From IMG/VR virus record IMGVR_UViG_2728369482_000003, positions 32,001 to 96,000 of that record: a stretch of DNA of 64,000 bases. One strand, given 5' to 3'. The translations under genes and the position numbers were made by a program. This document shows, one piece after another, positions 30,562 through 55,637 of the stretch (position 1 is its first letter; every line of letters begins with the position of its first letter). The DNA is from a virus. Taxonomy: Duplodnaviria; Caudoviricetes. Below the pieces are notes generated by a model. It saw only the letters and a program-made list of their open reading frames with translations. It was not told the DNA's origin and searched no databases.

Positions 30562-31032
30562 ATGATCGATTCACAAGTTGAAAAACAGGAACTAAACCTG
30601 TACCTGAACCGGACCTACTATCCAACCGGTACCAACGGATCATTAACCGACGGAATGCGGGAAATCAGTAAAACCATCGAACTACCCTGGAAGGATAACC
30701 AGCCCCGCATCAGCTGTATACCGGAAGGAACCTACCCGGTAGTGATCTATAATTCACCCAAACACGGTCCGAGCCTGCTGCTGAAGAAAGTACCCGGCCG
30801 CTCGATGATCGAAGTCCATTCGGCCAACTGGGCCATGGGAAAAGACGGTACCGGTAAAACCCCGCAGCTGCTGGGCTGCATTGCCCCGGTGACCCAGCTG
30901 GATACCGAGACGGGTGGTCGGCCCGGCGTGGGCTGGAACTCCGGTAAAGCCCTGGAAAAAGTCGAAGCCCTGACCTTCCCTGTTATCAAGGCCGGTGGTC
31001 AGGTATTTCTCCACATCCGTAAAGCCGCTTAA
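30562..31032 (+). CDS. DUF5675-like protein, putative endolysin/peptidase
   Basis: GTNGSL, TIELPW..N, SCIPEGTY, VPGRS.I..H..N and GCI motifs. Confidence 0.8.
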   Translation: MIDSQVEKQELNLYLNRTYYPTGTNGSLTDGMREISKTIELPWKDNQPRISCIPEGTYPVVIYNSPKHGPSLLLKKVPGRSMIEVHSANWAMGKDGTGKTPQLLGCIAPVTQLDTETGGRPGVGWNSGKALEKVEALTFPVIKAGGQVFLHIRKAA

Positions 31033-34000: not shown

Positions 34001-36470
34001 GACCGGAGCCGAACTGACAAAACTTATCGAGGCCCAGACGGGTAAACCGGGCGAAGATCCCTTGACCCTATCCCAGACAATTGTCCGGCAGTACGAGACA
34101 AAATTCCCGGTAACGTCAGAGACGGTTTCCGATACGGACTGGAATCAGTTCGTCGATACCGGAAAATTACCGGTTGGTTCAACCGTAGTTGACAAACTAA
34201 TTCAGAAAATTAAACTGGGTCAACCGCTGGATCAGCGGGAAACCTCCCTGTACGGAGAACCGGCTATTGCCAAACAGGTAGAAGCAGCTCTAAAACAGGC
34301 GGCTGAAAAACCCAAGGCTCCATCCCTGTTTGATCTGGGTACAGCGAGTACCGAAGATGACTCAGAGAAAGTTGAATCCATTCCCAAACCGGTTGACAAA
34401 AATACGACATCAGACCTCGTCACATCCGCTGAAGCTCAACCGGTTAAGCCGATTCGTAGTCTGTTCGATCTGGGAACACCCGGAGAAGTCGAGGATGAAG
34501 CTAATCCGGTATTCGATCCGATCAAACACGGATTGAAGCTGGGTATCACCCCAATCGAACGGGAACGGCTGAATCCCGAGCAATTGACAGTACTGGATAA
34601 AGCTAAGACCATCAATCCGGCAATCGAGGAACTCTACACCCGGCTGGGACGTCCGGCTATGAAGCCCGGTAGTCTGGCCAACAAGTTCAACACGACCGGA
34701 ATGCTGCTCTTCGACGGTAAGCCCATCTACGCCGACCCGGACAAGCTGGAAACGGATCCGGTTCTGCGGGCTGAATGGGAAAAAGTGGTAAACAGCCGGC
34801 AGAATCTGATACGGGCTCAATCGGCAGGTACACCCCTATCGCAACTGTTGGACTGGTCAGTACTGGACCGGCAGCAGGCGGGACTATCGGACGAAGCTAC
34901 GACGCTGTCGATGGATCCAGGCCTGCAGCGAAGTTCGGTTCCCTACTACCTGGTGGGCCGGGACAAGCAGTCCGGGGTCGGCAGTCTGGTGATTCCCTTA
35001 TCGGAGAGTTTACGGGTTAATTCGTTTGTCCTGCCGATGCTACTGGAACAGCCTGGCTTCTCGCCGGCCCAGCTAAGTCAGCTACGGGAACTGGGACCGG
35101 AAAATCCGCTATTGACCCAGGTTCTATCGATTACGGGAGAGCCAGGTTACCGATTCTTACAGAAGGCCCGGCTAGTCAATGCCGTGGAAAGCTTCGGGGA
35201 GTACATGGCCGCTGCCGAACGATTCAACCGGGATACCGGGCAATTGACGGGTTTGCTGGATAATGGACAGGTTAGTCCGGAGCTGGTTCATCAGCTGGAC
35301 CGGCTGCAGCTGGAACTGGCCGCCAGTAAACCCTTTACCGATCAGGGCCTGGTACCGGTAACGGAGATGGGTTTTGGAATCGATGGAAAACACCTGATCG
35401 TCCGTAAGAGCCGAACCGAATCGGGAGTTGTTGAAATTAAACAGGTAGCTTCCACTTTGGATAACGATGTTACTATTGATGAAGAAGCGTTTGCCAGCTG
35501 GCAACCAGTGATCCAGCAGAGCCTGCAGAATTACCAGGCGGCCCGGGTCAATGATCTCTACGACGGGTATTACTACATCAGCAGCCCCTCATCGAGCAGT
35601 AACTACGTGTACGGCTTTCGGGTAGTATCGCCCGACGGGATGGCTAAGCTGGAACAACTGATTCAGCGGGGTGAATCGTTTAGTCCTCAGGAGCAGTCGT
35701 TCTATCTATCAATCGGGCAAAAAGAGTACCGGCTGGAAGTCCGGGGGGATAAACTGAATGAAGGTAAACTGAGTCTACAGCTGCAACCGGCCGATCTGGA
35801 TGGGAAACTAAGTAAGACTGAAAAGCAGCAGCAGACCTGGTATTCCCCCTCGATCGACGTAGCCGGGGTTCGGTCGGGTCAGAAAAAACTGCTGGACGAG
35901 CTAAACCGGGTAGCCGGTGAACTAAAACAGAAAGACGGGAAAGCTACGCCCATCAAACCGATAATCAGTCAGGTTCAGCTGGACGAAGCCGATCGGTATA
36001 AACGCATGGTTCAGATCAGCTCTCCGGCCGTATTCCGCCGGGCCGATCTTCGGTGGAACCTGTTGCAGCCGGCCGGGGACGAAATCGTGTTGAATCTGCC
36101 GGTAAAGCCGGTTGTTCAGACGGGTATGGAACAGCTACCTGCCGTATCAGGGTCTTCTCCGGAGAACTCGTTTATTCATTCAAGTCTACAATCATTATTG
36201 GATCAGGGTGTAAGTCTCGATCTATTGAAAGCAGTATCGGAATGGATAAATGAGAATCCAACGGATATTGTTAATCTTTCGGGAATGACATTTACGGTAG
36301 ACGATTTATTGGAGCTTGATCCAACAGACGAAGATCAAGTAGCTGCTGTATATAACGATATGACCAGTGTACAAACAGGTAGCTGGCACCCAACTCCGAC
36401 AACCCGGCTGCAACAGAGTCCGGACAACCTGGATCAGATCGTTGACCGTTTAATAAAGCAGTGCCACTGA
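31032..36470 (+). CDS. Giant virion cargo protein 1 (membrane-channel-forming type)
   Basis: 1812 aa; Gly/Ala hydrophobic segments, SEGLEESLQ motif, long coiled coils; first of three giant genes. Confidence 0.75.
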   Translation: MNPQAPTPPNPVFDPNRVPFEGAGEPKPLPLSPLEIASSISAPLIKEAARKPSPADTLLKLGQSEMLTGREAQEASRYTDGGNTYLRGRDNEAVAAAGQGFWSRTWNDTKALVGITGSSILQAPLAIPQLVKAGVSLLQGEGIDKALDYARGEEGSWMRGLSDWQDQLNQDTTNYSSSWARENPWKNLIPGYGGEGGTDFGSLVRSGGFVLSGIATSLAEGALGAALAPVTGGISLAAVGVDLTGKLVRGFKALSTIGKSLDKLDDALRLKREAEGVLHGVDTIQGLGKLWSGIDTPLGNLSTRSALHGFLLANSEASLEGYGAEKELERTLLDQYYQQTGQEATGEARSRIQSVAQQAGNSTYLWNHALLGVSNKFQIDSILKNFSATKQLFSGLEGDLYRAERKTGTNVFEAVRQGSKPLISSAPEGASWFSRGLGAGKAVGTQGLLSLSEGLEESLQKAVTDGTQSYYQYKYNHGGKADLQNGLDAATHGLSEAFGTSSGWTEFIGGMLIGSLFGGGSKALFDWRSAPGQQKRAEALAQQFNLSMPDFQRVIQQQLTGSLAGADLLTKGAETNAVLGASSVGAQAASQGQQRIFQNQKNSAEFSFLYPFVRQGADSVLKEQLDSFKQDIEKRPDEFRQAYGIDGSVPTDKLRGIIDHLGTKLESLQRAHDRYAPLFINPYKKDPSSEDYRDFEAYRAELLHNDYLRQSYGERIAKLQGKTSLLGETDWTSPAGWKARKGQISNRLTELDSLISLAKQSLAPTGDRTNPTDEEVARVDRQLRSQQRAEREELEARLSAIEQIQTGNFTDYDAVLDTIKAELTHPDMGTGLPKTITHTELAQLLQDRYDVGELQASIDKLTELFNGLSSRKGFEDYRVTTDRYRAKQVQKELEKLLSSRTALRDEIVGQFDSVADAELHLGSLDELTARYGSDYNQNPDSVRTELGQLITEKKAEKADEKARRDDEIRILSELVKGDPRVAAVQSRADQTGAELTKLIEAQTGKPGEDPLTLSQTIVRQYETKFPVTSETVSDTDWNQFVDTGKLPVGSTVVDKLIQKIKLGQPLDQRETSLYGEPAIAKQVEAALKQAAEKPKAPSLFDLGTASTEDDSEKVESIPKPVDKNTTSDLVTSAEAQPVKPIRSLFDLGTPGEVEDEANPVFDPIKHGLKLGITPIERERLNPEQLTVLDKAKTINPAIEELYTRLGRPAMKPGSLANKFNTTGMLLFDGKPIYADPDKLETDPVLRAEWEKVVNSRQNLIRAQSAGTPLSQLLDWSVLDRQQAGLSDEATTLSMDPGLQRSSVPYYLVGRDKQSGVGSLVIPLSESLRVNSFVLPMLLEQPGFSPAQLSQLRELGPENPLLTQVLSITGEPGYRFLQKARLVNAVESFGEYMAAAERFNRDTGQLTGLLDNGQVSPELVHQLDRLQLELAASKPFTDQGLVPVTEMGFGIDGKHLIVRKSRTESGVVEIKQVASTLDNDVTIDEEAFASWQPVIQQSLQNYQAARVNDLYDGYYYISSPSSSSNYVYGFRVVSPDGMAKLEQLIQRGESFSPQEQSFYLSIGQKEYRLEVRGDKLNEGKLSLQLQPADLDGKLSKTEKQQQTWYSPSIDVAGVRSGQKKLLDELNRVAGELKQKDGKATPIKPIISQVQLDEADRYKRMVQISSPAVFRRADLRWNLLQPAGDEIVLNLPVKPVVQTGMEQLPAVSGSSPENSFIHSSLQSLLDQGVSLDLLKAVSEWINENPTDIVNLSGMTFTVDDLLELDPTDEDQVAAVYNDMTSVQTGSWHPTPTTRLQQSPDNLDQIVDRLIKQCH

Positions 36471-39518: not shown

Positions 39519-39675
39519 AGTATCCGTTCGTATAAATGGTTCGACATTTGTACAACCCAAATAGGATTATACTATAACTCAAATATACAAAAATTACTTA
39601 TTGGTATACGTCTCAAGTATACCAAATTACTAGACAAATTCCTATATTGATTTGATTTTACCGGTTGATCAGCTC

Positions 39676-40110: not shown

Positions 40111-40112
40111 CG

Positions 40113-40718: not shown

Positions 40719-40973
40719 TTTTGATACTCTTAAAAGTTAATATTCTTTACCATACCCCTATTTTTCTACCGTAAAACATATAACCCTTCATTGATCCAGT
40801 ATAACTATAACAGGTTAAGTTAGAAACACCCTATGCTATTTAATTGGTAATCAATAATCTATAACACATTTTTATGTTAACTTTATACTAACACGGGAAC
40901 CCACGGAAAAACGGGAAGCTTGGATTCTTTTCCGGATTAAACCTGAATAAATCCGAATTGAATTACGGACCAA

Positions 40974-41022
40974 ACTCGTCCATTCAGGCTCCTGACCCGG
41001 TGAAGCAGTTCGGTTACCTTTG
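40974..41022 (+). promoter_or_regulatory. Putative late promoter, copy 4
   Basis: TCAGG-CT-CCTGA at 40984-40995; TACCTTTG at 41015-41022 (31 nt offset); ATG at 41029. Confidence 0.75.
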
Positions 41023-41028
41023 CTCATT

Positions 41029-44000
41029 ATGCCCTACCAGCCTCTTTGTCTGAATCCCCAGGACCCAACCGTCAAGCAGTTTATCAACCAGTACGGTATG
41101 CGGGAAACGTACCGGATCTACACCCAGCACCAGTACTGGTTGCCGGACTTCACGGCGTATCAGAACCGGACCCAGGCGGACGTCCTGCCTACTCAGGGAG
41201 CTATGGATTACCTGCAGTCGATGGTCAGTCTGGATCAGTTCAACACGGACAACCTGGCAAACATCGGAGTCGAACTGCCCCAGGGTACTGAAGCGGCTTT
41301 CTGGCGGGATACGTTTTATTTCGGAGACAGTATCAGCCGGGGAGCCCTTTCGGAAGAAGCCTTTCACGCCGTCTTTCAACGAGTAATTCCAGGTACTGAA
41401 CAACAGGACCTGCTGGACACGGGTAAACAGCTGCTACAAGCGGATCTGAAAGTACTGGGTCATACCAGTCTGAACGGCTACTACCAGACCATGCTCCAAT
41501 CGGCTCCCCAGACCTACGAAAATCTCTCGAAGGAAGCGGGACTAAACCGGCTCTACGAGGAGAAACTGGCTACTGAGTTTGTCCGCTGGAACACCTACGG
41601 TAAACAGGCAGCCTGGGAAGCTGACTGGACGAAACGATTGGCTCCGTACCTTGGAGCTAAATCGGCCAGCCGGATCAGTGGTCTAATCAGCCGGCTGTTT
41701 ACCCGGTTGAAAGCCGTTATGGGGTTATACGACAAAAACCGGCTTAAAGCCGATCTGTTCTTTTCCCGTCTTCGCTCAGGTGTCTACCAGACGGCTAAGG
41801 TAACCGAAGCGGGAAACCTTAATACCGTCCCCACGACCCGGCTCATCCGACTGGGTAACGGACAGACCGTATCGGTTCGGGAATCCACCCAGCTGCTGCG
41901 AAATCTGGGAGCCCTGGTGCTCCAGTTAGGGGATCACGATTTATTCAGTTACCTATCCGAACCCGAACGAATCGAGAAAGCCCTGGAATTAATGAGCAGC
42001 CAGTATGGAAGGACACCTGGTGGAAAACAAGTGTCACTGGTTTTAAAACCTACCTATTTTGATAAGGTATCAAAGCAGAAAGAAGTCAACCCAGAGTACC
42101 AGTTGATCAAAGCGGATCTGGAAGCTTACCTGGGTGAGCTGCGGAGCGTATCGACCCTGCTGGATGAATCGGAAGAAGACGAGATTGGGGGCGGCATAAA
42201 CGAGTTTGCCGGCTACGACAAGGAAGCCAACGAGATCGGCGGGTTTGCCGGGCTGTCTACCTGGGTCAAGCAGTTCATTGCCCGGACGGGTATTCCCCGC
42301 CTGGATAGTAACGGCCTTCCCCAGGTTCATACGGTAGATACGGGCAATGGAGTCATCGAACTTCCGATCCTGGATGTAGTCGATCCCCAGCAGGTGTATA
42401 CCGGTCTGGCCCGGAGTTTATCAAATACTACCGGGGTCAACGACCGATTGGAAAAACTGCTGGTCCTGACCCAGTTCGACGGTAACCCGGCTACCCGGGC
42501 CGTGACCGATCAGCTCCTTCGGGATATGGCCCCGGTTCGCTACCAGGCTACCCCGGCCCTGCAAGCCATCCAGGAACGCTTCACGCTGACGGATGGTATC
42601 CGAACACCCCAGCAGCTGGATCGGGCTTTACAAATAGCGGATGCCCGGTTGACGGCCAGGGATCGTTCCGCTATTACCCAGCAGGCCTTTACCCGTTTGC
42701 AGGAAACCAGTCCTCGGGTGTTACGAGAAGAACTGCTGGCGGCTATCCGGACGGATACGCTGGATAGTTATCTGTCTTCGGCCGGTAAAAACGTACTGAT
42801 CCGAATTCTAAAAGGATTCGATCTCTGGAAACGGGACATGCTGAATATGCGGGTAGATCCATCCAACGGACTCTCGGTAATCAGTGAAGCCAACGTGGAA
42901 CGGGCCAGCAAACAGCTCCTGGCCCGCTGGGAGAGTAACTGGAACCGACGGACTACTGAAACACCAGATCAGCTACCCACTGGACCGGATGTTGTCAACA
43001 GTCGAGTAACCTTGGAAACAAAGGATTTTCCGCTGGTTCAGCTGGAAGCCCTAGCTTTACCCGAACAAACGGCTTACATCGAATCCGTATTTGATCGGGA
43101 AGTTGATAAACAGCTTCGCTTTTTAAACCGGTTCGGCATTCAGGTACCGTCGGCTTATCTATACTACCGGCTTCAATGGTTTGCCGAACAACGGTATCCT
43201 GCATTACCCGGCATTAACCAGACTCGTTCAGCCCGGTTAAAGGATTTATACCCGATACCGGATAGTTTGTTGTTGACCCCGGATGATCTGGGTTTACTGG
43301 ATAAATACGTCCAGAACCCAGCCGTGTCTCCCTACCAGGCAACCGGCTCCAAAGGACTCGAAGCCGGGATGCGGACACGGCTGCAGAAACTGGCCGAGGG
43401 AGCCGCCCGTTTCGACGAGTCGGCCGTGGACAGCTCCTACCAGAACGCAGAAGGCAAAACCATCTACAGCTACCAGCAGAAAACCTACAGCCTGGAATTT
43501 TTCAACTGGTTTGGGCAGACCGGTTTGACTAAACTGGAAGACCTGTACCGGACCGGTAACCGGACCCGGCTCCGGGATGATCCGTCCGGTAATCCGGTTT
43601 ACCTTCAGCTCGATAGCTGGGCTTTGCAGAAAAACCGGCTGCTCAAAGCCATCCTGACCGATCCGGCCGTACGGGCCCAGCAGGGTAAACTCACGGCCTT
43701 TACCGTGGACGGTACGACCCAGACCCAGCTGGAAGGAACCCCGGACAACGCCCGTTCAAGACCCGATGCCCAGGCCGGGGAAGGGGTTACCTACGGAGGG
43801 ATGTCCCCCCGGGAGTTCGACCAGTTCAACCTCAACAGCCTGGTGTCTCGTTCGACCACGGTGGGCAGTCTGACCATCAGCCCGGTGTTCCTGGGCAACC
43901 GGGAAACCAGTAAGACGGGGGAGTACATGAATCTTCCGTTACTTACGGGTCTTATCGAAAACGATCAGCTGACCGATAAGGGAGCCAATCTGCTACTGGA

Positions 44001-47000
44001 CGAGATCCAGAAAGAATACGAACGAATTCAGCAAACCTACAAAGAAATAAACCCGGACGAGAACGGGAAGCCTAGGTATTCAGCTGAACTTGAAAAGGCC
44101 CAGAACTACCACACCGGGAAATCCCTGAAACCCGTGGTGGTCAAGGATCCGACCCGCTTATCGGTGACGGTTCACGTACCGAGCGCCGGTAAAGATTTTC
44201 GGGGGCTGCAGTTCACCGACGGACTCCGGGGCTTACTCCCCGGTAACTGGCAAACACTACCCCAGCCGGGTGATACCGAAGCCGGTAACCTGATACTATC
44301 GGCCCTGGCTGGTTATGACTTTCCCCGCCAGAAACTACTGGCTCCGATCAAGCAGCAGATCCGGGCTAACCTGGACGAGCACCTGGACCGTTTTGCCCAG
44401 GAAGGACTCTGGAAAGCCGATCTTTCAGGTCCCACGACCCTGCTGAATCTCCGGCTGAGCAAAGCCCGGGTGGAAAACAAGCTGGTATCGGACCTGCTGA
44501 ATAACATCGCCATGGGGCAGCTGGCCTACGGGGATGCGGCTCTGCTCTACAAAAACGACGGGGTAGACGTCTTCAAACGACTCAAGGGGCTCAACGCGGC
44601 TATCATTAACTTTAAAATACCCTTCAGCTCCCCGGCCCAGGGAATTGATGAACCGGCTACGTATCTGAAAGCTTTGACCATCGGAGAACCGACGGCTGTC
44701 AGTGACGTCTCCGGGGGCTCGATCGATCTGGCCGATGCTCAGGGCTACCAGAGTGTTCAGGCCCGTCGAAAACACCTCTACGGAGCGGGCCGGCTGGACA
44801 GTCTGCAGGTCGAAGTGCTCGACGCCATACAGGAAGGCAAACCTGTCCGGGGCAAACTGCTGGCCCGGTTGCGGGAATCAGGGATTATGTACAACTCGGA
44901 GAAGACCGTGGGAGCCGACGGGCAGCAGTACAAAAAGCTCTCGGAGACGATTCTCTCCAAAGAACTTACGGCCGATCCCTACCCGATCACCAAAGAACAG
45001 TTTGATCAGTGGGCCAGTCTGGACAGCTACAACCGGACCCGGCTGAATCCCGGATCTCCCGAAGTAAGCTCCTATATCGACGACAAATCTGGTCAGCGGG
45101 TCTACCGGCAGTGGGTCCCCAAGCCCGGCCGCCGGAGTCTGAACGAGCTTCGGTTGAAAATGGACGGCTTTGAGCGGGTCGGGGACAACTGGCAGTTTCG
45201 GGGTTATGAACACCGTATCGATCTGGTAACACCCCTCTCGGCCAGTAAAACCCTGAACGTGAATGTTCACGAAACGAGAACTGACGCTGGTCAGCCCGAC
45301 TGGGGGCAGGTCGATGACCGGAGCATTCACCAGCTGGATTTCAGCTTTTACGGGCTGCAGACGGAAAACCCTTCGGGTAAAACCAAGATTGTCGATCCGA
45401 CCCAGATGCTGGAGATCATTGCCAACGAGTTGGGAGACGATGCTAGGGTCTGGTTCGAACAGGAATTTATCGGCAAGAACCAGATCGAAACCCTCTGGCA
45501 AAGCTACCTTCAGCAGCGGGATTCGACCAACTACCAGCTGGCAGAGAAAGTCTTCCAGGACGAATCGGGTAATCTGACGCTCCACCGGTTCCGTCAGCAG
45601 GCCTTCGAAGCGGTTATTCGCTCGGGTAAAGACAAACAGACAGTTGATCTGTTCGATCCCCAGCATAACCTGAATCTGAACCTGCCCCTGACCAGGGATC
45701 AGTTCATCAGCCAGTTCTTTTCCCATTTCTCCAAAGGAGTACTATCCCACAAACGGGCGGGGGATTCACTGGCCCACGTGTCTTCGTTTGGTCACCAGGT
45801 CATTAAAAAGCTCCGCCGGGTCAAGCTCGACGACGGTTCGACCAATATCACCTGGGACGTTATCCGGGACGGCTCCCGGGAATACCAGCTGGCCCTTGGG
45901 CAGGGTCTCTCGGGTAGTTTGGCCCCATTCCGCTACAAGCACGAGTTCGACGGTAAAAGGCGGATCGAGCCAACTGGTTACACCGATTCAAAAGGGAATA
46001 CCAACTCCAGCTGGTTTAGTCAGGCTACTACGCTACTGGGTGATCAGGACTCGGTCTACGTACTGGACAGTCTTCGGCACCTTAAACCCCGGCTGGAAGA
46101 AACCGCTCCCGGCTCCAATGTGTACCGGCAGACGGGGTATTTCTCCGAAGCCCTGATGCCGGTACACGACGATCAGATTCGGGAGCTGACGCCGGACCTG
46201 CGGTATAGCTTTGGGGTCCGGATTCCTTCCCAGGACAAGCACTCGGCCATGAATGTGGAGTGGGTGGATACGCTGCCGGTTTTCATGGGTTCCAGTGTGA
46301 TTCTGCCCAAGGAAGTCGTCGAGCTGTCGGGTTCCGATTTTGACATCGACAAACTCTATTTGACCCGCTTTGATGGATACTGGAAGAAAGATCGGAACAA
46401 CCGGAATCAGTTCGTAGCTTACGGATCGGAGCAAACCGACGAAGCCCGGTGGGAAAGTTACGTCCATTACCTGCTGGATCATTACCCGGCCATCAAACGG
46501 GAGCTTCGTCAGAAACTCCAGGATCCGACTTATCAGGATTTAGCTGTAGTAGTCCGGGCTCTGCAGGCCGATCAATCGGAACAGTTACTGGATGACGAAC
46601 AGTTGTCGGACTGGACGGCCGCCAGTCTCCAGCTATACTTTGCCGGCGATCTAGCTGGTTTGAAAGCCGGGCTGGACAGCCAGTACCAGCAGGCCCTGTC
46701 AGAAGTCCTCTCTCAGTTCGGCCTGCCGGCCAGTCAGAACACCTATACCAGTCTGCCCAGGGCGGAACAGGAAGCCCTGCACGTGGGGATCATCCAGAAC
46801 CGGATGCTCTCGCTCCAACAGGGACTCCTGGCCAACGATACGACCATCAATGACAGTAATCCGACGGGTGGTCAGTACAACCAGCCGGCGGCTCTGGATA
46901 AACTGAACGAGCTGAAGGGAGAAACCCAGGACGGCACCCGGCTGTTTGGTGAATCGGTGGCTCCGATTTCGACCCACTGGCAGCTGACCCACAGCAGGGT

Positions 47001-50000
47001 TCATCAGAAAAACGGAGTGGGTAAAGCCCTGATCGGTATCGGGGTGAATACCAACTTGTTTCTAATCAATGCCGTCCGGCTGGGCTTTCAAGTCCATCCC
47101 GACTACCTGCCTAAACTGGACGACAACCGTTCCCATGACGGGATCTACCGGGCCCAGACGGTGGGGAAAAACGGCGAGGCAGTTCGGAGCTTTGATATCA
47201 ACTCGACGATCATTACGGCCGATACCGACGAAGCCAAGGAAGCCCTGAACGCCTACTACCAGCTCAACAGCGATACCCAGGCTGTGGTACTCCACCTGAC
47301 GGGGATTGGCTACAGTCTGCTCGACGGACTGACACTGGTCAACCAGCCGGTGATTCAACGCTACGTGGCCCTGACCGAACAGGCCCGCCGGGTCAAACGA
47401 GGTATTGGGGTTATCAGCAAGGAAGAAGAAGGACTTCGGTTTGCCAGCAAGGATAAACTGGTCCGGCAGGCGCTGGGCTTATCGGATACCGACAAACTGG
47501 ACCTATCCGGAAGCTACACCGTCGAAGCCCTGCGGAACCAGTTGGCTGGTTACCGCAAAACCGGAACGTATCAACGGTCCTCAATTGATGGACAACTGCT
47601 GACCGATTTTCAGAACCTGGTCGAATTGAACGAGTACGCCAGTAACTTCGTCCGGTTCATCAAGCTCAAAAAAGGGTTTGGTCGGGAGCTGCCCGCCTTC
47701 GATCAGCTGGTCAAAGCCGGTGAACGACTGGGGTTTGGAGCCGTAGAACCCGAAGCCGCTCCGATCGATATCAAAGCCAAGCTGGAAGCCAAACCCAGAC
47801 TGGCCGCCCAGTATTTGAACCTGATCAACCAGATCGTCCCCCGCTCCCAGGCCCTGCAACAGCAGGTGATTCTCCGCCGGCACCCCCTGTTTACCGGACT
47901 CCAGCAACAGGTCAGTAATCAGCTAAACATGGTCTCGGCGGCCGATCAGGAGATTCTGGCCCGGGCGGTGGAAACCTTTTTGTTAACCAAACTCTACCAG
48001 CAGCAGGGCTTCCAGCTGGATCCGGCCAGTGTATACCAGGACGGCGGGGACGAACGAATCACCCGGCAACTTCAGGCCTTTCAGCGGGATTACGCGTTTG
48101 TCCGAAAAGATGAGAACGGACTGATCCTGGAAAAAAGTATCTTTGCCGATAACCCGATCTTCGAGCTGCTTCAGCCGGTAACGGGTACTGATGGAACCAG
48201 TACCCTCCGACTCGGCGGAGCTCTCAAGCTCAGTCCATCCCAGCAGGAGAATCTGCTGGATGCGTTCCAGGATCTCTACACCCGGCCGAACCAGCCAGTG
48301 ATCGACGGACAAACGGTTGGACAACTGATGGCTACCCGGCTGGTGAATTACCACCTGGTCAAGGAAGGGTTTCAGTTTACGGTCAACAGCATCAGCCGGC
48401 TGTTTCCCCCGGCCGTCTTTGCCCAGCTCAGCCAGCAACTCGATCAAATCCAGGCTAATCCGGACGTATCCGGAAATACGGTAAATCAGTGGTCCGCTGA
48501 CCTACTGACCAGTCTGGGTCGGGACGTGAACTACCAGACGTATGTTAAGCCCTTACGCAGACCAACTGGTAAAAACTCATTAGCCAGTCTGGTTAAACAA
48601 TCCGGATTCTGGCAGTACCAGACGGCCGACGAGCAAGTGAGTAAACAAGCCCTGACTACCGACCTGGTACTAGATAGCACCCGGATTCCCGCTGATAAAT
48701 CCCAGGAGCTGTATCCCAGTATGGGTCTGGGGTATTCACCCAAAACCGGATCGGTTGATTTCCCCCGCTTTATTCGGGTTGAAGAATGGATGAACGGGGG
48801 TACGGGTGAGTACGGCGAGGAACTACCCAGCTACAAACAGGCTAAAACCTACGAGCTGGTGAGTGTTATCGGTACCGATGGAAAGGTGATTCCCCTGTCA
48901 CAAATCGAAGCCAGTCCGGAAGTATCCGGAAGTAAAGCCCGCTACGTCGAAGTCATTCCATCGGGAGCCAAAGGAATCTCGGGGGCTACCGGCTTACCGG
49001 CCCACTACAGCCCGGCAGCCAAGACCAAACGGGATGCCTTGAGTAGTCAGGTTAAGCCCGGTTCGGCTACGGCTAACTACTATGGATTAGCGGGGAATCC
49101 AATGCTACCTGCTCTAGTAACGGGTGTAAGTCAGTCACCGATAACTATTGTCGAAAAACCTGTCGTTACCAACAAAGAATTGGTCATTTCTGTTTTACCG
49201 GAAACGACCGAAAAGGGTAAGCGGGCAGAAACCACTACGAAGTTTGGGGTTGAGAAGCCGCTGAGCTACGAGCAGCTGGGAACCGAGCAGAAGCAGTTTG
49301 TGGATAAGCTCCAGTCATTTGTGCTGACTGATTCGTTTAATCCCCGGGATGCCGAGTCGGTACTGGTACTGGAAGGGTCGGCGGGTACTGGTAAAACAAC
49401 GTCGGTAAAAGTAGCCCTGCAGCAGCTACTGGAATCCGGCCGAGTTTACCCTGAACAGATTATGCTGTCAGCTCCTACGCACACGGCTCTGAAGACCTTG
49501 TTCCGGTCCGTTCGGGGAGTAAGGCATCGAAACCGAAATCCGATGAATACGGCCCGTTTTTACAAAAACAACGTAAAAACAGTTCAATCCCTGCTGGGAG
49601 CCGTTCGTCGGGTCAATCAGAACGGGGAACTTCAGTTTTCTATCAGCAAGACCACCAAGGAAAAACTGCTGGATATCCGGTTGCTGATTATCGACGAAGC
49701 GTCCATGATTTCCAATGTTCGGGAAAAGGGAGCAACGGTTAGTATGTTGGAAGGGCTTCAGGGTTTACAGGACGAACTACCGAACCTGAAAATTCTGTAC
49801 ATCGGGGATCCGAACCAGATACCTCCGGTGAATGGAAAAGAAAGTGTTGTTTTTAGTCTGTACCGGAATAACCTTCATCGGCTGACGCAGGTATTCAGGC
49901 AGTCGATGCAGAATCCGGTCATTCGAACGCTGACCCGGATCCGGGAGAAGATTGATCAACCGACGGATCCGCTGGATTACAAATCAGCCATCCATAACGG

Positions 50001-51099
50001 GGAAGGGATTGTATATACCGGGTCTTCCGCTGCCTTTATGGAACAGGTACGGGATCAGTTTACCTCGGACGGTTACGCAGCCAACAAAGATTTTACCAAG
50101 GTTATTTCCTACACCAACCAGGCCGTACAGCGGTTTAACCAGCTAGTCCGTCGGTACCGGTTCGGAGACCTGCCGAAATTTCTGGAAATTGGGGATGTCG
50201 TGATGGGCTACGCCAATACCGATATTATCAACGGACAGGAGTATGAGGTCCGCTCTATCACTGAGAATCATCCGATCCAGCTGGACGAACTACTCAACAG
50301 CAGTACGGCTACGGGTCAACGGCAGCTCCAGTTACTAACCGATGAATTTCCCCGGCAGGTTCAGCAGCTACGGGCTAATCCGCCCATTGGCTACAAGGTA
50401 GAACTCGAAGAAGTTAACTCGATCAAGGCTGAATTCGACGAATCACCCCGGCAGACTAGTTATCTGCTGGACGTCAAGAACGAGTCCGATATCGATTACA
50501 TCCGGGAGCATCTGAATCTGGTAGGAGCCGTACGAACAAAGATCAACGCTACCTGGTCGGAGTACAACCGAACCAAAAACCGGAGTTTATTCGGCCTGAT
50601 TCAGGAGCTGGAAGGCGTTCGACAAAGTCTGGAAATGATTAACTTTAACCAGCCAATCATTCAGTACCAGAACCAGTTCTACCCCCAGAAGCAGCTGGTG
50701 TTGATTCTCCAGACTGCTGGACAAAGCCCGGACCAGATTGAACAGATTCTTAGCCGGGGTAATATCGTGGACAAGACCTACGATTATGGCTATGCGATTA
50801 CAGCCCATAAAGCTCAGGGAAAAACCTACGTCAACACGCTGATTAACCTGGAAGACATTGACGGTAATAACGACCGGAGACGGCTAGCCAATCCCAAAGA
50901 AGTAAACCGGATTCGGTACGTAGCCTTGTCCCGGGCTACTGGCATCGATTACGTACTGACCCCCAAAGCTGAATCCGTTTCCCAGCCCATTACCGTTAAA
51001 CCTTCCCTATTTGACATCGGTACCCCGGGAGAATCCCTGGATGAGCAGACCGATACTGATTTACGGCTCGACCAACCCTGCGCCAAACCCACCGCCTGA
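41029..51099 (+). CDS. Virion RNA polymerase (crAss/phi14:2 gp66 type) with an N-terminal degenerate zincin and a C-terminal SF1B helicase
   Basis: RIPSQ and GSDFDIDKL (46336-46350) catalytic motifs; EEAFH..EEKLA; GSAGTGKTT, IIDEASM, GDPNQIPP, HKAQGKT and YVALSRA. The ORF track's TTG at 41020 lies inside the -7 box, so ATG 41029 is preferred. Confidence 0.9.
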   Translation: MPYQPLCLNPQDPTVKQFINQYGMRETYRIYTQHQYWLPDFTAYQNRTQADVLPTQGAMDYLQSMVSLDQFNTDNLANIGVELPQGTEAAFWRDTFYFGDSISRGALSEEAFHAVFQRVIPGTEQQDLLDTGKQLLQADLKVLGHTSLNGYYQTMLQSAPQTYENLSKEAGLNRLYEEKLATEFVRWNTYGKQAAWEADWTKRLAPYLGAKSASRISGLISRLFTRLKAVMGLYDKNRLKADLFFSRLRSGVYQTAKVTEAGNLNTVPTTRLIRLGNGQTVSVRESTQLLRNLGALVLQLGDHDLFSYLSEPERIEKALELMSSQYGRTPGGKQVSLVLKPTYFDKVSKQKEVNPEYQLIKADLEAYLGELRSVSTLLDESEEDEIGGGINEFAGYDKEANEIGGFAGLSTWVKQFIARTGIPRLDSNGLPQVHTVDTGNGVIELPILDVVDPQQVYTGLARSLSNTTGVNDRLEKLLVLTQFDGNPATRAVTDQLLRDMAPVRYQATPALQAIQERFTLTDGIRTPQQLDRALQIADARLTARDRSAITQQAFTRLQETSPRVLREELLAAIRTDTLDSYLSSAGKNVLIRILKGFDLWKRDMLNMRVDPSNGLSVISEANVERASKQLLARWESNWNRRTTETPDQLPTGPDVVNSRVTLETKDFPLVQLEALALPEQTAYIESVFDREVDKQLRFLNRFGIQVPSAYLYYRLQWFAEQRYPALPGINQTRSARLKDLYPIPDSLLLTPDDLGLLDKYVQNPAVSPYQATGSKGLEAGMRTRLQKLAEGAARFDESAVDSSYQNAEGKTIYSYQQKTYSLEFFNWFGQTGLTKLEDLYRTGNRTRLRDDPSGNPVYLQLDSWALQKNRLLKAILTDPAVRAQQGKLTAFTVDGTTQTQLEGTPDNARSRPDAQAGEGVTYGGMSPREFDQFNLNSLVSRSTTVGSLTISPVFLGNRETSKTGEYMNLPLLTGLIENDQLTDKGANLLLDEIQKEYERIQQTYKEINPDENGKPRYSAELEKAQNYHTGKSLKPVVVKDPTRLSVTVHVPSAGKDFRGLQFTDGLRGLLPGNWQTLPQPGDTEAGNLILSALAGYDFPRQKLLAPIKQQIRANLDEHLDRFAQEGLWKADLSGPTTLLNLRLSKARVENKLVSDLLNNIAMGQLAYGDAALLYKNDGVDVFKRLKGLNAAIINFKIPFSSPAQGIDEPATYLKALTIGEPTAVSDVSGGSIDLADAQGYQSVQARRKHLYGAGRLDSLQVEVLDAIQEGKPVRGKLLARLRESGIMYNSEKTVGADGQQYKKLSETILSKELTADPYPITKEQFDQWASLDSYNRTRLNPGSPEVSSYIDDKSGQRVYRQWVPKPGRRSLNELRLKMDGFERVGDNWQFRGYEHRIDLVTPLSASKTLNVNVHETRTDAGQPDWGQVDDRSIHQLDFSFYGLQTENPSGKTKIVDPTQMLEIIANELGDDARVWFEQEFIGKNQIETLWQSYLQQRDSTNYQLAEKVFQDESGNLTLHRFRQQAFEAVIRSGKDKQTVDLFDPQHNLNLNLPLTRDQFISQFFSHFSKGVLSHKRAGDSLAHVSSFGHQVIKKLRRVKLDDGSTNITWDVIRDGSREYQLALGQGLSGSLAPFRYKHEFDGKRRIEPTGYTDSKGNTNSSWFSQATTLLGDQDSVYVLDSLRHLKPRLEETAPGSNVYRQTGYFSEALMPVHDDQIRELTPDLRYSFGVRIPSQDKHSAMNVEWVDTLPVFMGSSVILPKEVVELSGSDFDIDKLYLTRFDGYWKKDRNNRNQFVAYGSEQTDEARWESYVHYLLDHYPAIKRELRQKLQDPTYQDLAVVVRALQADQSEQLLDDEQLSDWTAASLQLYFAGDLAGLKAGLDSQYQQALSEVLSQFGLPASQNTYTSLPRAEQEALHVGIIQNRMLSLQQGLLANDTTINDSNPTGGQYNQPAALDKLNELKGETQDGTRLFGESVAPISTHWQLTHSRVHQKNGVGKALIGIGVNTNLFLINAVRLGFQVHPDYLPKLDDNRSHDGIYRAQTVGKNGEAVRSFDINSTIITADTDEAKEALNAYYQLNSDTQAVVLHLTGIGYSLLDGLTLVNQPVIQRYVALTEQARRVKRGIGVISKEEEGLRFASKDKLVRQALGLSDTDKLDLSGSYTVEALRNQLAGYRKTGTYQRSSIDGQLLTDFQNLVELNEYASNFVRFIKLKKGFGRELPAFDQLVKAGERLGFGAVEPEAAPIDIKAKLEAKPRLAAQYLNLINQIVPRSQALQQQVILRRHPLFTGLQQQVSNQLNMVSAADQEILARAVETFLLTKLYQQQGFQLDPASVYQDGGDERITRQLQAFQRDYAFVRKDENGLILEKSIFADNPIFELLQPVTGTDGTSTLRLGGALKLSPSQQENLLDAFQDLYTRPNQPVIDGQTVGQLMATRLVNYHLVKEGFQFTVNSISRLFPPAVFAQLSQQLDQIQANPDVSGNTVNQWSADLLTSLGRDVNYQTYVKPLRRPTGKNSLASLVKQSGFWQYQTADEQVSKQALTTDLVLDSTRIPADKSQELYPSMGLGYSPKTGSVDFPRFIRVEEWMNGGTGEYGEELPSYKQAKTYELVSVIGTDGKVIPLSQIEASPEVSGSKARYVEVIPSGAKGISGATGLPAHYSPAAKTKRDALSSQVKPGSATANYYGLAGNPMLPALVTGVSQSPITIVEKPVVTNKELVISVLPETTEKGKRAETTTKFGVEKPLSYEQLGTEQKQFVDKLQSFVLTDSFNPRDAESVLVLEGSAGTGKTTSVKVALQQLLESGRVYPEQIMLSAPTHTALKTLFRSVRGVRHRNRNPMNTARFYKNNVKTVQSLLGAVRRVNQNGELQFSISKTTKEKLLDIRLLIIDEASMISNVREKGATVSMLEGLQGLQDELPNLKILYIGDPNQIPPVNGKESVVFSLYRNNLHRLTQVFRQSMQNPVIRTLTRIREKIDQPTDPLDYKSAIHNGEGIVYTGSSAAFMEQVRDQFTSDGYAANKDFTKVISYTNQAVQRFNQLVRRYRFGDLPKFLEIGDVVMGYANTDIINGQEYEVRSITENHPIQLDELLNSSTATGQRQLQLLTDEFPRQVQQLRANPPIGYKVELEEVNSIKAEFDESPRQTSYLLDVKNESDIDYIREHLNLVGAVRTKINATWSEYNRTKNRSLFGLIQELEGVRQSLEMINFNQPIIQYQNQFYPQKQLVLILQTAGQSPDQIEQILSRGNIVDKTYDYGYAITAHKAQGKTYVNTLINLEDIDGNNDRRRLANPKEVNRIRYVALSRATGIDYVLTPKAESVSQPITVKPSLFDIGTPGESLDEQTDTDLRLDQPCAKPTA

Positions 51100-54000
51100 T
51101 GGCCTGTACCCTTCCCTACATCCAGAAACTCTCCGTTCCGTCTTCCGAGAAAACTCGGCTGGAAGACCTACACTTTCAGATCGGTCAGCAGCTGCGGGCC
51201 CATCAGTCGGCCGACGGCTCTACGTTTATCCTGAAAGGTGGCTATCTCCGGCTCAACTCCCCGGGTTCTGCCGCCCGGACTGAGCAGGAAGCTTTGCTGG
51301 ACTCGATCAACAGCCAGTACCCCGAACCTGTGGTGCGAATCGAGACCATTCAGGAAGCCTACGATCCGGGAGACGGTGAACTGACCTACCGACCCATTTC
51401 GGTTGTGGGCGTTGACGTTCGGCCCCTGCTGAACCCCAGCTACCGGGACCAGATTGGAGAACTGACCAGCCCCGAAGAATCGACCCTGACGGGGATCGGT
51501 GGGAATCCAGCGGAGACTGTAGTTCAGGCTGATCTGGCCCGGGGTCTCAAGGATTTTGTACTGGATCCCATCCAGGATCCCGACGGGTCGGGCGATCTCC
51601 GGTTTGTGACCGAAGCCCACCACGAGCTGTTTCAAAAGACGGCCGAGCAGGTGACCAAAAAGCTCCGGAATTACCTGGATCTGCTGGAAGGAGGATCGGT
51701 CGAACGGCCTGGCCAGCAGGTGACTATCCAGCAACTTCGGGAGCAGCTACAAGCCTTGGAGAATCCGGATAGTCTGGCCCAGATCGAAGCCGTCTCCGAT
51801 TTTATCGTCCAGGCTTCGGGTTGGCTGGACGGGCTTTACAACACGTTTTTTCTCGACGAAGACTCGGTCCGCTCCACCCAGCGGGAGCTGCAGACGGGTA
51901 TCAACCGAAAGACCGGACAACTACTCACGCCAGCCGAACGGGATACCAGAATCAACTGGGTTGCCCGGCAACTAGCCAAGCAGAAACACTACCTGTACCT
52001 GTTCGACGAGCTGGGCCGCTTCAAACAGCAGCTTCAGGAGCTCGGCTACGTCTCTGCTACCCAGCCCGTTTACGACCGGGGTGAACGTTTACAATCTGAA
52101 ACCCGGGATATTCTGGGCCAACTCGGCGTGAGTCCGGGTAATACCGAATCGGTACTGGACGTCTTACGTTCCGAACAGTTTACCGAAGGAGCTCTACGGG
52201 CCGAGCTGTTCCGGGTACTGTCCGTTACCCATTCTGACCAGCCGGGGCTTACTATCCACCGGACCGTAGAAGACTACCTGGAGCAGGTGTTGAAAAGCTA
52301 TCCGGGCAAGACCGTGGAATCGGTTCTGGACGAAGCCCTGTCTAAAGCCGTTCGACTCAAGCAAAGCCTGGTCGAGCACCACTACGAACTGGTGACCAGC
52401 TGGCTCTGGCCACATATCCAGGCCAAGCAGCAACGCTACACCGGCCCGGACAAGCTCGACCGGGATCAGCTGAAGAGTTTGCTAAAGACGGCAAAAGAGG
52501 ACGAAGGTATCTTTCAGTATGGGCTGGATGCTCCCATTCAGTCATCCGATCCCGTGACGGCTATTGTCGCCAGTCTGACCTCGGATGCCCTGTACCGCTC
52601 GGCCGAGGAAAGCCGGCTGAATTTGAGTAGGCTTCTTTCGGTTCGGGAACCACTGGGGCTGGAAAAAACCATGTCGCCGGCCCAGATCGAAGCCTACCAC
52701 CGGGCGATGACCCATGATACCATCCTGCCCCTGGAAGGCCCTGACTCTGGGGAAGCCGGTGAAGACTGGGATGGACCGGTACTGACCGTTTCCGTCTTCG
52801 GACAAACCAAACGAATCAAAGGGTATACCAAACGGGCCTTTCTGACCGAGTACAACACGGCCCTGCAACAGGCCCACCAGAAAGAATTCTTCGGTCAGCT
52901 ACCGGGTAAACTCGATGAGCTGATGAGTCTGGTTACGGTTCAGGACGGTTACCTGGATGTATCGGACCTGAAGGCCCTGCTTCAGACCAGCTCCCAAGAC
53001 GAATACCTGGGTCCGCTGCTAAGTAAGCTCTTCAGCTACGACCGATCGATGGGTAGCTGGCAACTCCGGACCAATCCGACGGGACCAACGGATCAGAACT
53101 ACGTCCGGGGTAAACTCCGTTCGGGTCTGATCCAAACGTTTTTCAGTCTGCACCAGCAGCCCCTGGATCAGATGAGTAAAGCCAGCCTGTTTACCCGGTG
53201 GAACCTGCTGGATCAAACGGGCAAGCCTAACCGGGATGAACAAACCAGTATCAACTCGGACCTGCAACAGAACAGTCAGGAGTACCGGCTGACGGATCCC
53301 GAACTACAGGGTAAGCTAACGGGCAAAAAGAATGAATCCTGGCTGAATAACTTTGTCGGCTACCGGGTATCGGATACCGAACACTACCTGTACGTACGGA
53401 AGCTGGTAATCAACAAAACGACCGGTAAACCTGAATCCCGCTGGAGCTGGGTGAATATCTATCAGCCCGGTTCACTTACGAACGTTACCCGGCTCTACTA
53501 CGCCAAAGGGGAACTGATCCGGCCGGCCGATCGGTACCGCACCGACCGGGGCAGCTTTGGTATCCAGGTCCAGCAGCAATGGGCTGACCTGCAAACCGGT
53601 GATTCAGTCCGGAAGACTTACTTCGACGGACTCTGGGATGGTTACGAGCGAGCCAATCGGCAGCTGGGTACTCCTGCTTTAGCTCACGGGGTACTACCCC
53701 AGGTCGAACGGCTTCAGTCCTTAACCGAAGGACCCAAGGGTCACTGGGAACGGCTCTGGGACTGGATCAAACAGCACACCCTACTCAGCTGGGTACGCGA
53801 CAGCTACCACTGGCTGACGGGGGAAGCGACGGAAGATCAGCAGGTAGGCCGAAAACCAATTTACCTGGATAATTCACCGGTTCACCAGATCCGGGCTCGC
53901 TATACCAGCTTTATTCCGGATGGACAGCTGGAAGGCGATCTGTTTCGATCGGTCCTTATGTACCAGTCGATGGCCAGTAGTTACCGGGAGCTGACTCGAC

Positions 54001-55637
54001 TCGATCCCCAGGTTCAGGCCCTAAGAACCCTGATTACCGGAGATACCAGCCTGTCTCTGGATCCCCGGGAAGCCCTGGATAAACCGGTCTGGGAGAAAAA
54101 AGCCGGGGAACTCCTGGAACGCCAGCAGAGTAAGGTAGCCAGCCGGCTGAACAAAAAGCTGACCAGCTTTCTGGATGACGTCGTCTACGGGGAATCCGAT
54201 TACGGCCAGGTATATACCCTATTCAACAAACCCGTCGATCCCCAGGTACTGGCCAAAAAGATGTCGGGTTTTACCGCCTTTTCCAACCTGGCCTGGAACG
54301 TTTCCTCGATGATGGGAAACATCGGGGTCGGCTTTTTATCGAACTACTCCGAAGCGGTCAAAGGGAAATACTACCGACCCGAAGATTGGCTGTCGGCGGG
54401 GAAAGACTACTGGCTAAGCATGGGTCAGGGGGAGTTCATCCGGGACCTCTCGGAGATCAATCCCGAGAAACGAAGCAAGTGGACCCAGGTAGCTTCCCAG
54501 CTCGACGCCATTCAGGGAGAAATTCTGGATGAATCGGGCAGCTACAGCCGGGTTCAGACGGTTGACAAACTAATGAACCGGGCTCTGTTCTGGACCCAGT
54601 CGGGAGCCGAGCACATGATTCAGATGAAATCGATGATTGCCCAGATCCGGGGTTTTAAACTAGAATCCGGTAAGACCTTCTACGAAGCCATCGAGCAACT
54701 ACCGAATGGTAAAGTAGAAATCCGGGCCAGTCCCCAGGAAATCCGCAAGTTCCAGCAGCAGCTTCACTCGGTCAACAAGCAGCTTCATGGCCACTACAGC
54801 CAGTTTGACAAATCAATGCTCCAGCGGCATTGGCTGGGTCAGATGCTGATGATGTTCAAAAAGTACATCTACTCCTCCATTCGTTACCGGTTCGGGGACA
54901 GCCGTTTCGACTGGGAAGCCGGGGATGAAACCGAGGGACACCTGCGGGCTTACTGGAAACAGATCGTCTCGGAACTGGGGGATCAAAAAGGAGCGTTTCG
55001 GAAAGCGGCCGTTCTGGGTAACGGGATGCTGCTCCGGCCCAGTCTGTCCGCCGTCGATCAACTGGTCGGGGGACAACTGGGTAAGCTGAGTCCGGGCCTG
55101 GGTAACTACCTGTACGGAGATGAGAGCCAGCTCCGGAATAGTGCGGCCCGGCAAACAGGATTCGACGTGTTGTGGTATTCCCTGATGATTCTGATGGCGG
55201 GCTTTATCCACGGGCTGGATGAGGACGATGATCCCAACGGAGTAGCCCTGCAGAACATGGAAGCCTTTGCCCGGCGGATGGAAGGGGACCTGGGAATGTA
55301 CCTGCCGTTTTACCTGGGTACCGGGGGTAAAACCCTGTTCTCGTCTTACGACAAAGCCTGGCAGCTGGTCAAGTCTCCACTGGCTCAACTGCGGGCCTAC
55401 GATGGTACGGTCAACCTGCTTTCCCAGCTGACGGGCGTGGAACATACCGAGGATGGCTGGGACATGAGCTGGAACGATACCTACAGCCGGGATGGAGCAG
55501 GTTATGAGAAGGGAGAAAGCAAGCTGTACCACAAAGTGGAAAAAAGTTTGCTGGGTCCCCTGGCTCAGCTGAACCGGTTGATGAACCCCGAAGCCCAGCT
55601 GCAGTACCTGAACCTGAGTCGGCGGAACAGCCAGTAA
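51099..55637 (+). CDS. Giant virion cargo protein 3
   Basis: 1512 aa; C-terminal LHGHY...Q....GQ..MMFKKY......RF motif typical of the last crAss giant protein; TGATG coupling to the RNAP gene. Confidence 0.75.
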   Translation: MACTLPYIQKLSVPSSEKTRLEDLHFQIGQQLRAHQSADGSTFILKGGYLRLNSPGSAARTEQEALLDSINSQYPEPVVRIETIQEAYDPGDGELTYRPISVVGVDVRPLLNPSYRDQIGELTSPEESTLTGIGGNPAETVVQADLARGLKDFVLDPIQDPDGSGDLRFVTEAHHELFQKTAEQVTKKLRNYLDLLEGGSVERPGQQVTIQQLREQLQALENPDSLAQIEAVSDFIVQASGWLDGLYNTFFLDEDSVRSTQRELQTGINRKTGQLLTPAERDTRINWVARQLAKQKHYLYLFDELGRFKQQLQELGYVSATQPVYDRGERLQSETRDILGQLGVSPGNTESVLDVLRSEQFTEGALRAELFRVLSVTHSDQPGLTIHRTVEDYLEQVLKSYPGKTVESVLDEALSKAVRLKQSLVEHHYELVTSWLWPHIQAKQQRYTGPDKLDRDQLKSLLKTAKEDEGIFQYGLDAPIQSSDPVTAIVASLTSDALYRSAEESRLNLSRLLSVREPLGLEKTMSPAQIEAYHRAMTHDTILPLEGPDSGEAGEDWDGPVLTVSVFGQTKRIKGYTKRAFLTEYNTALQQAHQKEFFGQLPGKLDELMSLVTVQDGYLDVSDLKALLQTSSQDEYLGPLLSKLFSYDRSMGSWQLRTNPTGPTDQNYVRGKLRSGLIQTFFSLHQQPLDQMSKASLFTRWNLLDQTGKPNRDEQTSINSDLQQNSQEYRLTDPELQGKLTGKKNESWLNNFVGYRVSDTEHYLYVRKLVINKTTGKPESRWSWVNIYQPGSLTNVTRLYYAKGELIRPADRYRTDRGSFGIQVQQQWADLQTGDSVRKTYFDGLWDGYERANRQLGTPALAHGVLPQVERLQSLTEGPKGHWERLWDWIKQHTLLSWVRDSYHWLTGEATEDQQVGRKPIYLDNSPVHQIRARYTSFIPDGQLEGDLFRSVLMYQSMASSYRELTRLDPQVQALRTLITGDTSLSLDPREALDKPVWEKKAGELLERQQSKVASRLNKKLTSFLDDVVYGESDYGQVYTLFNKPVDPQVLAKKMSGFTAFSNLAWNVSSMMGNIGVGFLSNYSEAVKGKYYRPEDWLSAGKDYWLSMGQGEFIRDLSEINPEKRSKWTQVASQLDAIQGEILDESGSYSRVQTVDKLMNRALFWTQSGAEHMIQMKSMIAQIRGFKLESGKTFYEAIEQLPNGKVEIRASPQEIRKFQQQLHSVNKQLHGHYSQFDKSMLQRHWLGQMLMMFKKYIYSSIRYRFGDSRFDWEAGDETEGHLRAYWKQIVSELGDQKGAFRKAAVLGNGMLLRPSLSAVDQLVGGQLGKLSPGLGNYLYGDESQLRNSAARQTGFDVLWYSLMILMAGFIHGLDEDDDPNGVALQNMEAFARRMEGDLGMYLPFYLGTGGKTLFSSYDKAWQLVKSPLAQLRAYDGTVNLLSQLTGVEHTEDGWDMSWNDTYSRDGAGYEKGESKLYHKVEKSLLGPLAQLNRLMNPEAQLQYLNLSRRNSQ

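Follow-up and report, generated by a model that had tools for sequence, protein, structure and literature searches.

A predicted crAss-type RNA polymerase joined in frame to an intact-looking SF1B helicase in a prophage of a Spirosoma genome

Why is a helicase joined to the end of a phage RNA polymerase, and what would it do there? The question is raised by one gene in IMG/VR virus record IMGVR_UViG_2728369482_000003, of which positions 32,001 to 96,000 were analysed (64,000 nucleotides, one strand; this whole stretch is called the window). Positions 41029-51099 of the window, on the plus strand, form a single uninterrupted frame of 3,356 codons (10,071 bases) without an internal stop, and the encoded protein is called P0001. 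The original prediction, made from the sequence alone, had placed the polymerase motif DFDID and a full set of superfamily 1B (SF1B) helicase motifs in this one frame, and every motif is located at the positions given then. The gene and its C-terminal parts are as follows.

41029..51099, plus strand: whole gene, 3,356 codons; stop TGA at 51097-51099
49084..49260, plus strand: linker, amino acids (aa) 2686-2744; disordered in the model, with a predicted local distance difference test score (pLDDT) of about 30
49261..50973, plus strand: predicted SF1B helicase (Dda/RecD2/Pif1-like), aa 2745-3315; no cysteine
50974..51096, plus strand: acidic C-terminal tail, aa 3316-3356, ending in ..LDQPCAKPTA; Cys3351 at 51079-51081

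The earliest possible start is TTG 41020, where the listed open reading frame begins. The alignment of the relatives starts at ATG 41029, and a conserved cysteine then falls within the first 7 residues; position 41029 is therefore taken as the start. At the other end, the stop codon shares one base with the ATG of the downstream gene (TGATG), as in the cargo genes of phage phi14:2.

The first 2,700 residues of P0001 have no match in Pfam, PHROGs, or a single-sequence search of the PDB, and a tblastn search of GenBank phages with the N-terminal 1,657 residues found no match. The polymerase is identified solely by profile and fold searches. A large protein collection contains 69 giant homologues of 2,684-5,705 residues. 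The profile made from 12 homologues has a sole match in the PDB, 6VR4_A, which is gp66 of phi14:2 (E 6.5e-19). The match spans gp66 residues 1323-1878 in PDB-chain numbering, and includes GVRIPSQDKHS and the catalytic SGSDFDIDK, the latter aligned with the corresponding gp66 loop. In this loop S1767, G1768, D1770, F1771, D1772, D1774, and K1775 are invariant in the alignment of 12 homologues, and its D, F, D, and D are also invariant in an alignment of 27 homologues.

44263..47622, plus strand: two-barrel polymerase core as modelled, aa 1079-2198; AlphaFold pLDDT 80, predicted template modelling score (pTM) 0.79
44335..44892, plus strand: stretch homologous to gp66 793-1016, aa 1103-1288; a weaker match, 15.3 bits
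46180..48006, plus strand: stretch homologous to gp66 1309-1864, aa 1718-2326
46213-46245, plus strand: GVRIPSQDKHS, invariant in the family, within aa 1718-2326
46336-46350, plus strand: DFDID of the catalytic SGSDFDIDK; the loop is aa 1767-1775

An AlphaFold check of the domains had been proposed with the original prediction. It leads from the polymerase core to 6VR4 and from the helicase to Dda, RecD2, and Pif1. The best fold match of the core model is 6VR4_A (E 1.8e-24, template modelling score 0.57 by query length), followed by P23-45 gp96, QDE-1, and the largest subunits of cellular polymerases; the two-barrel fold is assigned from this whole-core match and not barrel by barrel. On the profile and the model, the gene encodes a crAss-type two-barrel RNA polymerase of the phi14:2 gp66 family. 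The two-barrel fold and the DFDID catalytic loop are the same in gp66 (6VR4) and in P0001, with about 15% identity in the fold alignment. The two proteins differ in size and content, since gp66 has 2,180 residues and lacks a helicase, whereas the gene in the window has 3,356 codons and includes one.

The helicase region is matched by Pfam AAA_19/AAA_30 (E about 1e-14, aa 2776-2990) and by PHROG 325, a Dda-like helicase family that covers aa 2745-3315 (E 2e-61). Motifs I, Ia, II, III, IV, V, and VI are all intact.

49375-49401, plus strand: motif I, GSAGTGKTT, with Walker A Lys2789
49471-49482, plus strand: motif Ia, APTH
49687-49707, plus strand: motif II, IIDEASM
49804-49827, plus strand: motif III, GDPNQIPP
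49882-49902, plus strand: motif IV, LTQVFRQ
50791-50826, plus strand: motif V, YAITAHKAQGKT
50917-50937, plus strand: motif VI, YVALSRA

In an alignment of ten fused helicases, the G and K of motif I, the D and E of motif II, the G, D, and Q of motif III, the R of motif IV, the Q and G of motif V, and the R of motif VI are invariant. The AlphaFold model of aa 2692-3356 has a mean pLDDT of 68 and contains low-confidence inserts. Foldseek with this model returned 8JX6 (6e-21), T4 Dda 3UPU (2.4e-20), and RecD2 3GPL (1e-15), then Pif1, and the closest folds are the Dda-like DSH9, T4 Dda, RecD2, and Pif1. The fold and all helicase motifs are common to the fused helicase and to T4 Dda, RecD2, and Pif1. 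These three are free-standing proteins of about 440-570 residues, whereas the helicase of P0001 is an internal domain; unlike them, it has a longer helical insert (model residues about 461-551) and lacks cysteines. By its motifs and its model, aa 2745-3315 are read as a complete, intact-looking SF1B helicase, and ATP-driven 5'-3' unwinding would be expected of it. Pfam, PHROG, profile, and fold matches thus bear out the in-frame joining of a crAss-type virion polymerase to an intact SF1B helicase.

The frame was compared with other assemblies. A Logan assembly of the probable source run contains a 37,208-bp contig that covers 47500-51200 with zero differences at a depth of about 112. This contig and the original assembly share one read set and are not independent DNA, so an assembler artefact is excluded and a library artefact is not. 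An unrelated run of 2024 contains a contig of 264 bp that matches 49442-49704 in the helicase region with 2 differences, both synonymous (Leu CTG to TTG and Arg CGG to CGA), and a near-identical phage therefore exists elsewhere. The public runs listed as containing the sequence include no RNA run. A stop or a misassembly between the domains, either of which had been named as grounds for giving up the fusion, was found in neither assembly.

A survey of homologues of the crAss polymerase for helicase fusions, suggested at the outset, covered 154 related loci, which were taken from collections of genomes and viruses. The motif DFDxD and an SF1B helicase share one frame in 15 of the 154 loci. Eleven of these are open under the standard code and 4 only with TAG read as an amino acid; the TAG-dependent loci (L007, L118, L121, L122) have 4 to 50 in-frame TAGs, which fits the stop-codon recoding reported in crAss-like phages. 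In one locus, L136, the order is reversed and the helicase precedes the polymerase motif. The fusion searches were seeded with SF1B helicases, and fusions to other helicase types would therefore have escaped.

The fusion is also present in two RefSeq genomes of Suoliviridae, where it is labelled otherwise: cr50_1 gp059 (NC_055868, 4,774 aa) is annotated as 'DNA helicase' and cr118_1 gp14 (NC_055872, 4,946 aa) as 'exonuclease V'.

L157 (NC_055868) 2803-17127: giant gene of cr50_1
L158 (NC_055872) 2641-17481: giant gene of cr118_1

Both proteins have a DFDxD polymerase, a C-terminal SF1B helicase, and a terminal cysteine like P0001; they are about 1,400-1,600 residues longer, and their helicases are about 25-29% identical to that of P0001. 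Both phages are gut phages known from metagenomes only, and the other copies found also sit in uncultured gut or environmental phages. Other RefSeq crAss labels of the giant polymerase gene are 'DprA-like DNA recombination-mediator protein' and 'nuclear pore complex protein-like protein'; the gene is named after its recognised add-on, and the polymerase itself is unannotated. The idea that the fusion is special to this phage was not upheld, as it is also present in RefSeq Suoliviridae and in the surveyed loci. It is a new, divergent example of an architecture that is already present, mislabelled, in reference genomes. No description of a polymerase-helicase fusion was found in the literature, of which subscription journals were mostly not covered, or in the supplement of Yutin et al. 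2021.

No Dda-like helicase other than the fused copy is encoded by cr50_1, by cr118_1, or by a complete contig of 101 kb that has terminal repeats. The same is true of the contig on which the window lies (C9 of the host genome, which carries the prophage); other Dda-like copies in that genome are at C11:131 kb and C18:57 kb, outside the prophage. In the flanks of the other loci (up to 10 kb per side), no stand-alone helicase frame of at least 200 codons was found. In crAssphage, Rudgehvirus, and Wotdevirus, a stand-alone homologue adjoins uracil-DNA glycosylase (UDG) and PolB. A strict rule by which the helicase is either fused or stand-alone fails: neither form is present in phi14:2 or in a relative that is 82% complete (the record behind L089).

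The comparison with close relatives places the helicase in a slot. The P0001 chassis aligns with its closest relatives to about residue 2685, with 48% identity to P0002 and P0003, and the homology to these two helicase-less proteins stops at the linker. P0004 has a helicase in the slot that is just 24% identical to that of P0001. The tail, with ..DQPCA, ends P0001-P0004 alike whatever domain precedes it, and the variable enzyme is therefore an insert between the chassis and a conserved tail. These alignments show a compact 2,685-residue polymerase chassis, a Dda-type cassette, and a short cysteine-bearing tail. On a tree of the polymerase core (FastTree, 160 rows), helicase presence needs at least 8 gains or losses, against a mean of 16.8 for shuffled labels. 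A single origin of the helicases of P0001, P0004, and P0005 is rejected by the approximately unbiased (AU) test (p 5e-62); for the pair P0001 and P0004 the test does not exclude a common origin (p 0.078). Deep nodes of the helicase tree are poorly resolved, and its branch to P0001 is long. The join is shown to have been repeatedly selected. The helicase appears to be an optional accessory that was gained, lost, and swapped between lineages, and not a core part of the polymerase.

What such a helicase could contribute is suggested by the known relatives of the polymerase. The original prediction had taken crAss-type virion polymerases to be packaged and gp66 to prefer single-stranded templates, and both statements are supported. 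The phi14:2 proteins gp65, gp66, and gp67 are annotated from tandem mass spectrometry (MS/MS) proteomics of virions. The double-stranded DNA of M13 is not transcribed by gp66 and the native phi14:2 genome is transcribed weakly, whereas single-stranded or denatured DNA is transcribed very efficiently. Neurospora QDE-1, a fold relative of the polymerase from a eukaryotic RNA-silencing system made of separate proteins, works preferentially on single-stranded DNA and depends on the helicase QDE-3 and on RPA. QDE-3 is a RecQ-type helicase (superfamily 2, 3'-5') and not SF1B.

The phage in the window and phi14:2 share the order giant protein, polymerase, gp65-like protein. The phi14:2 counterpart of this structural-block gene was found in virions by MS/MS. 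The neighbouring genes and the N-terminal cysteine of P0001 are as follows.

31032..36470, plus strand: upstream cargo protein, 1,812 aa, in the position of phi14:2 gp67; its sole cysteine is residue 1811
41047..41049, plus strand: Cys7 of P0001, facing Cys1811 at the C-terminus of the upstream cargo protein
51099..55637, plus strand: downstream protein, 1,512 aa; its sole cysteine is residue 3

The downstream protein is homologous to gp65, an 'RNA polymerase associated protein' (E 8e-14 in a three-sequence search); the sequence similarity of the upstream protein to gp67 is not significant. The block upstream of the gene holds a capsid gene (major-head PHROG match), a tail lysozyme, and a homologue of the crAss muzzle protein. 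The muzzle gene (16172-20635) matches Pfam crAss_MUZ with 36.8 bits against a cut-off of 27, and muzzle and capsid were the signature genes looked at. The structural-block position, the gp65-like neighbour, and the terminal-cysteine pattern argue by analogy that the polymerase would be packed in the particle and delivered with the DNA.

The cysteines of P0001 are only two in 3,356 residues, at positions 7 and 3351. A cysteine is present within the last 7 residues of 68 of 70 homologues, and in most long homologues, which have about 2,000 additional residues at the N-terminus, the C-terminal one is the only cysteine left. The same terminal-cysteine pattern is seen in gp67, gp66, and gp65 of phi14:2. 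The facing terminal cysteines suggest that the giant cargo proteins may be joined end to end in a disulfide chain. The geometry matches that of cyanopodophage A4, in which cryo-electron microscopy shows a disulfide between the ejection proteins gp27 and gp26, from C-terminal Cys1715 to Cys5 of the next protein (PMC12002296). The bond is observed in A4 and would be predicted from sequence in the present phage; A4 is a T7-like podovirus without a polymerase cargo. The tail lysozyme (20632-22131, 499 aa) also has a single cysteine, which is its last residue.

The scarcity of cysteine extends to the add-on domain. Within the fused helicase domains, internal cysteines number 0-3 per domain, in total 10 in about 11,000 residues (~0.1%), against 7-12 each in stand-alone crAss SF1 helicases (~1.9%) and 4 each in T4-like Dda and the host helicase. 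Cysteine was purged from the add-on like from the rest of the ejected chain, which argues for a long-standing shared fate. The fused helicase thus probably shares the fate of the cargo protein, and the depletion speaks against its removal by cleavage and retention in the producing cell. Near-absence of cysteines is a sign, readable from sequence, that an add-on domain travels with the ejected protein.

The best explanation is that the helicase is co-delivered as an optional module and opens or clears the entering DNA for the polymerase, a reading held at about even chances. The whole chain, helicase included, would be packed and ejected as one cargo protein. In the cell, an ATP-driven 5'-3' helicase would act on the incoming phage DNA beside the polymerase. 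Its likeliest job would be to make or keep a single-stranded template, or to remove bound proteins; a polymerase that handles duplex DNA poorly would have a use for a helicase that makes single strands. On the non-template strand, a 5'-3' motor could advance in the same direction as a polymerase that reads 3'-5' along the template, in the way that RecD accompanies RecB. The single-strand requirement of gp66-type polymerases and the dependence of QDE-1 on a helicase and RPA speak for this reading, as does the linkage in 15 fused loci, including the one with the helicase upstream, which points to selection. That many lineages have a helicase fused to the polymerase suggests one source of the single-stranded template. 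Help with first transcription is plausible, and promoter opening, which had been proposed at the start, may hold for phages with the fusion; it does not hold generally, as phi14:2, P0002, and P0003 lack the helicase.

A stronger version of co-delivery would be a self-contained two-strand machine, in which the polymerase moves 3'-5' on the template and the helicase 5'-3' on the other strand, by analogy with RecBCD. This version is suggested by the repeated helicase captures, all of which, among those found, involve SF1B enzymes, and which occur on one side of the polymerase or the other; it is put forward tentatively and is rather doubtful. If it is true, the injected protein opens the duplex and makes the first transcripts without a host factor, and the template question of crAss-type virion polymerases is answered for the fusion-bearing phages.

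Several observations weigh against a role in transcription. Of this family, only the phi14:2 polymerase has been studied biochemically, and the phi14:2 genome contains no Dda-like helicase at all; the helicase is therefore not a general solution to the template problem. Dda-type helicases need a single-stranded 5' tail to load. The closest relatives have other contents in the slot, which holds an AlkB-like 2-oxoglutarate (2OG)-Fe(II) oxygenase and a Kinase-PolyVal domain in P0002, and nothing in P0003. Among distant homologues, P0010 and P0030 have NADAR and P0061 has a kinase domain. A place occupied by such unrelated enzymes has the look of a general slot for effectors. The fused helicases also resemble the stand-alone helicase of the Intestiviridae replication block, which lies beside UDG and PolB. 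Finally, packaging, ejection, ATPase activity, and polarity are for P0001 inferred from its sequence.

These observations are the basis of the leading alternative, that the helicase is an interchangeable effector module of a 'polyvalent' injected protein and has a job unrelated to transcription. It would ride on the polymerase for early entry or act late in the producing cell, and could start replication or recombination, repair or protect the incoming DNA, or counter host nucleases or other defences. Besides the exchanged domains, the 'DprA-like' label of the giant gene in RefSeq crAss genomes, the gains and losses on the polymerase tree, the rejected single origin, and the replication-block setting of the nearest stand-alone relatives are all in its favour. 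Polyvalent proteins, giant multi-enzyme chains delivered with the DNA and with swappable modules, are a described theme (Iyer et al. 2017, PMC5512222). On domain content, P0001 and its relatives, as a multi-enzyme chain with shuffled modules, would belong among them, and P0002 carries Kinase-PolyVal, the family-defining domain. That paper mentions no crAss-like phages, two-barrel polymerase chassis, or SF1B (RecD/Dda-type) module. Against the effector alternative, the helicase shares its frame with the DFDxD motif in 15 of 15 fused loci, no stand-alone helicase frame of at least 200 codons was found in the flanks (up to 10 kb per side) of the other loci, the helicase is found on either side of the polymerase, and every fused helicase found by the SF1B-seeded searches is SF1B. 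An effector unrelated to transcription is a serious possibility, with about one chance in three, and it and co-delivery for the polymerase are not mutually exclusive.

The other function proposed at the outset, a motor for reeling in the phage genome, is improbable. The case for it is by analogy only: transcription by RNA polymerase helps to pull in the genomes of T7 and N4, and a co-delivered helicase would be suitably placed at the time of entry. Most relatives, including phi14:2 and the two closest homologues P0002 and P0003, are without such a helicase, and genome entry in the group therefore does not depend on it. SF1B enzymes, moreover, move along single strands and not along duplex DNA, and no support for the motor was found.

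That the fusion is an artefact, produced by misassembly, an overlooked stop or frameshift, or two genes read as one, is very improbable given a frame open over its full length, a second assembler identical across the junction, the identical architecture in 15 independent contigs and two RefSeq genomes, a conserved tail that continues in frame after the helicase, and a helicase as cysteine-poor as the rest of the cargo protein.

The window corresponds to C9:140245-204244 of a 6.57-Mb genome in 75 contigs. A host enzyme on C9 clusters at 90% identity with a protein of Spirosoma rhododendri, and host genes extend to about C9:106.5 kb.

C9:108245-109468: Bacteroidota-type tyrosine integrase, adjoining the left repeat copy
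C9:108030-108078 and C19:14881-14929: 49-bp perfect direct repeat

The repeat copy on C19 overlaps the 3' part of an intact tRNA-Arg(TCT) gene (region to C19:14958), and GC content returns to the host level just past it. The flanking repeat, the tRNA-Arg overlap, the integrase, and the GC shift therefore define a prophage of about 136 kb, and the contig of the closest relative, at 135,927 bp, has the same size. The apparently crAss-like phage is thus a ~136-kb prophage at tRNA-Arg of a Spirosoma genome. In a sample of 400 other genomes from the order of the host, this query returned no relatives of the polymerase. New here is the prophage itself: its attachment sites are intact and its Spirosoma host appears to be a cultured isolate, so that induction, virion proteomics, and genetics may be possible.

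Two minor features of the window were also noted. A low-GC island at 36470-41028 (GC 0.38-0.40 against 0.55 around it) parts the first two cargo genes, which in phi14:2 overlap by one base. The island contains one plus-strand and six small minus-strand frames without a significant family match, and P0002 and P0004 have small minus-strand genes at the same spot. ARAGORN reports a 101-nt 'tRNA-Phe' at 7832-7932 (C9:148076-148176, minus strand), which lies inside the coding frame 6505-8196 and is probably a false call.

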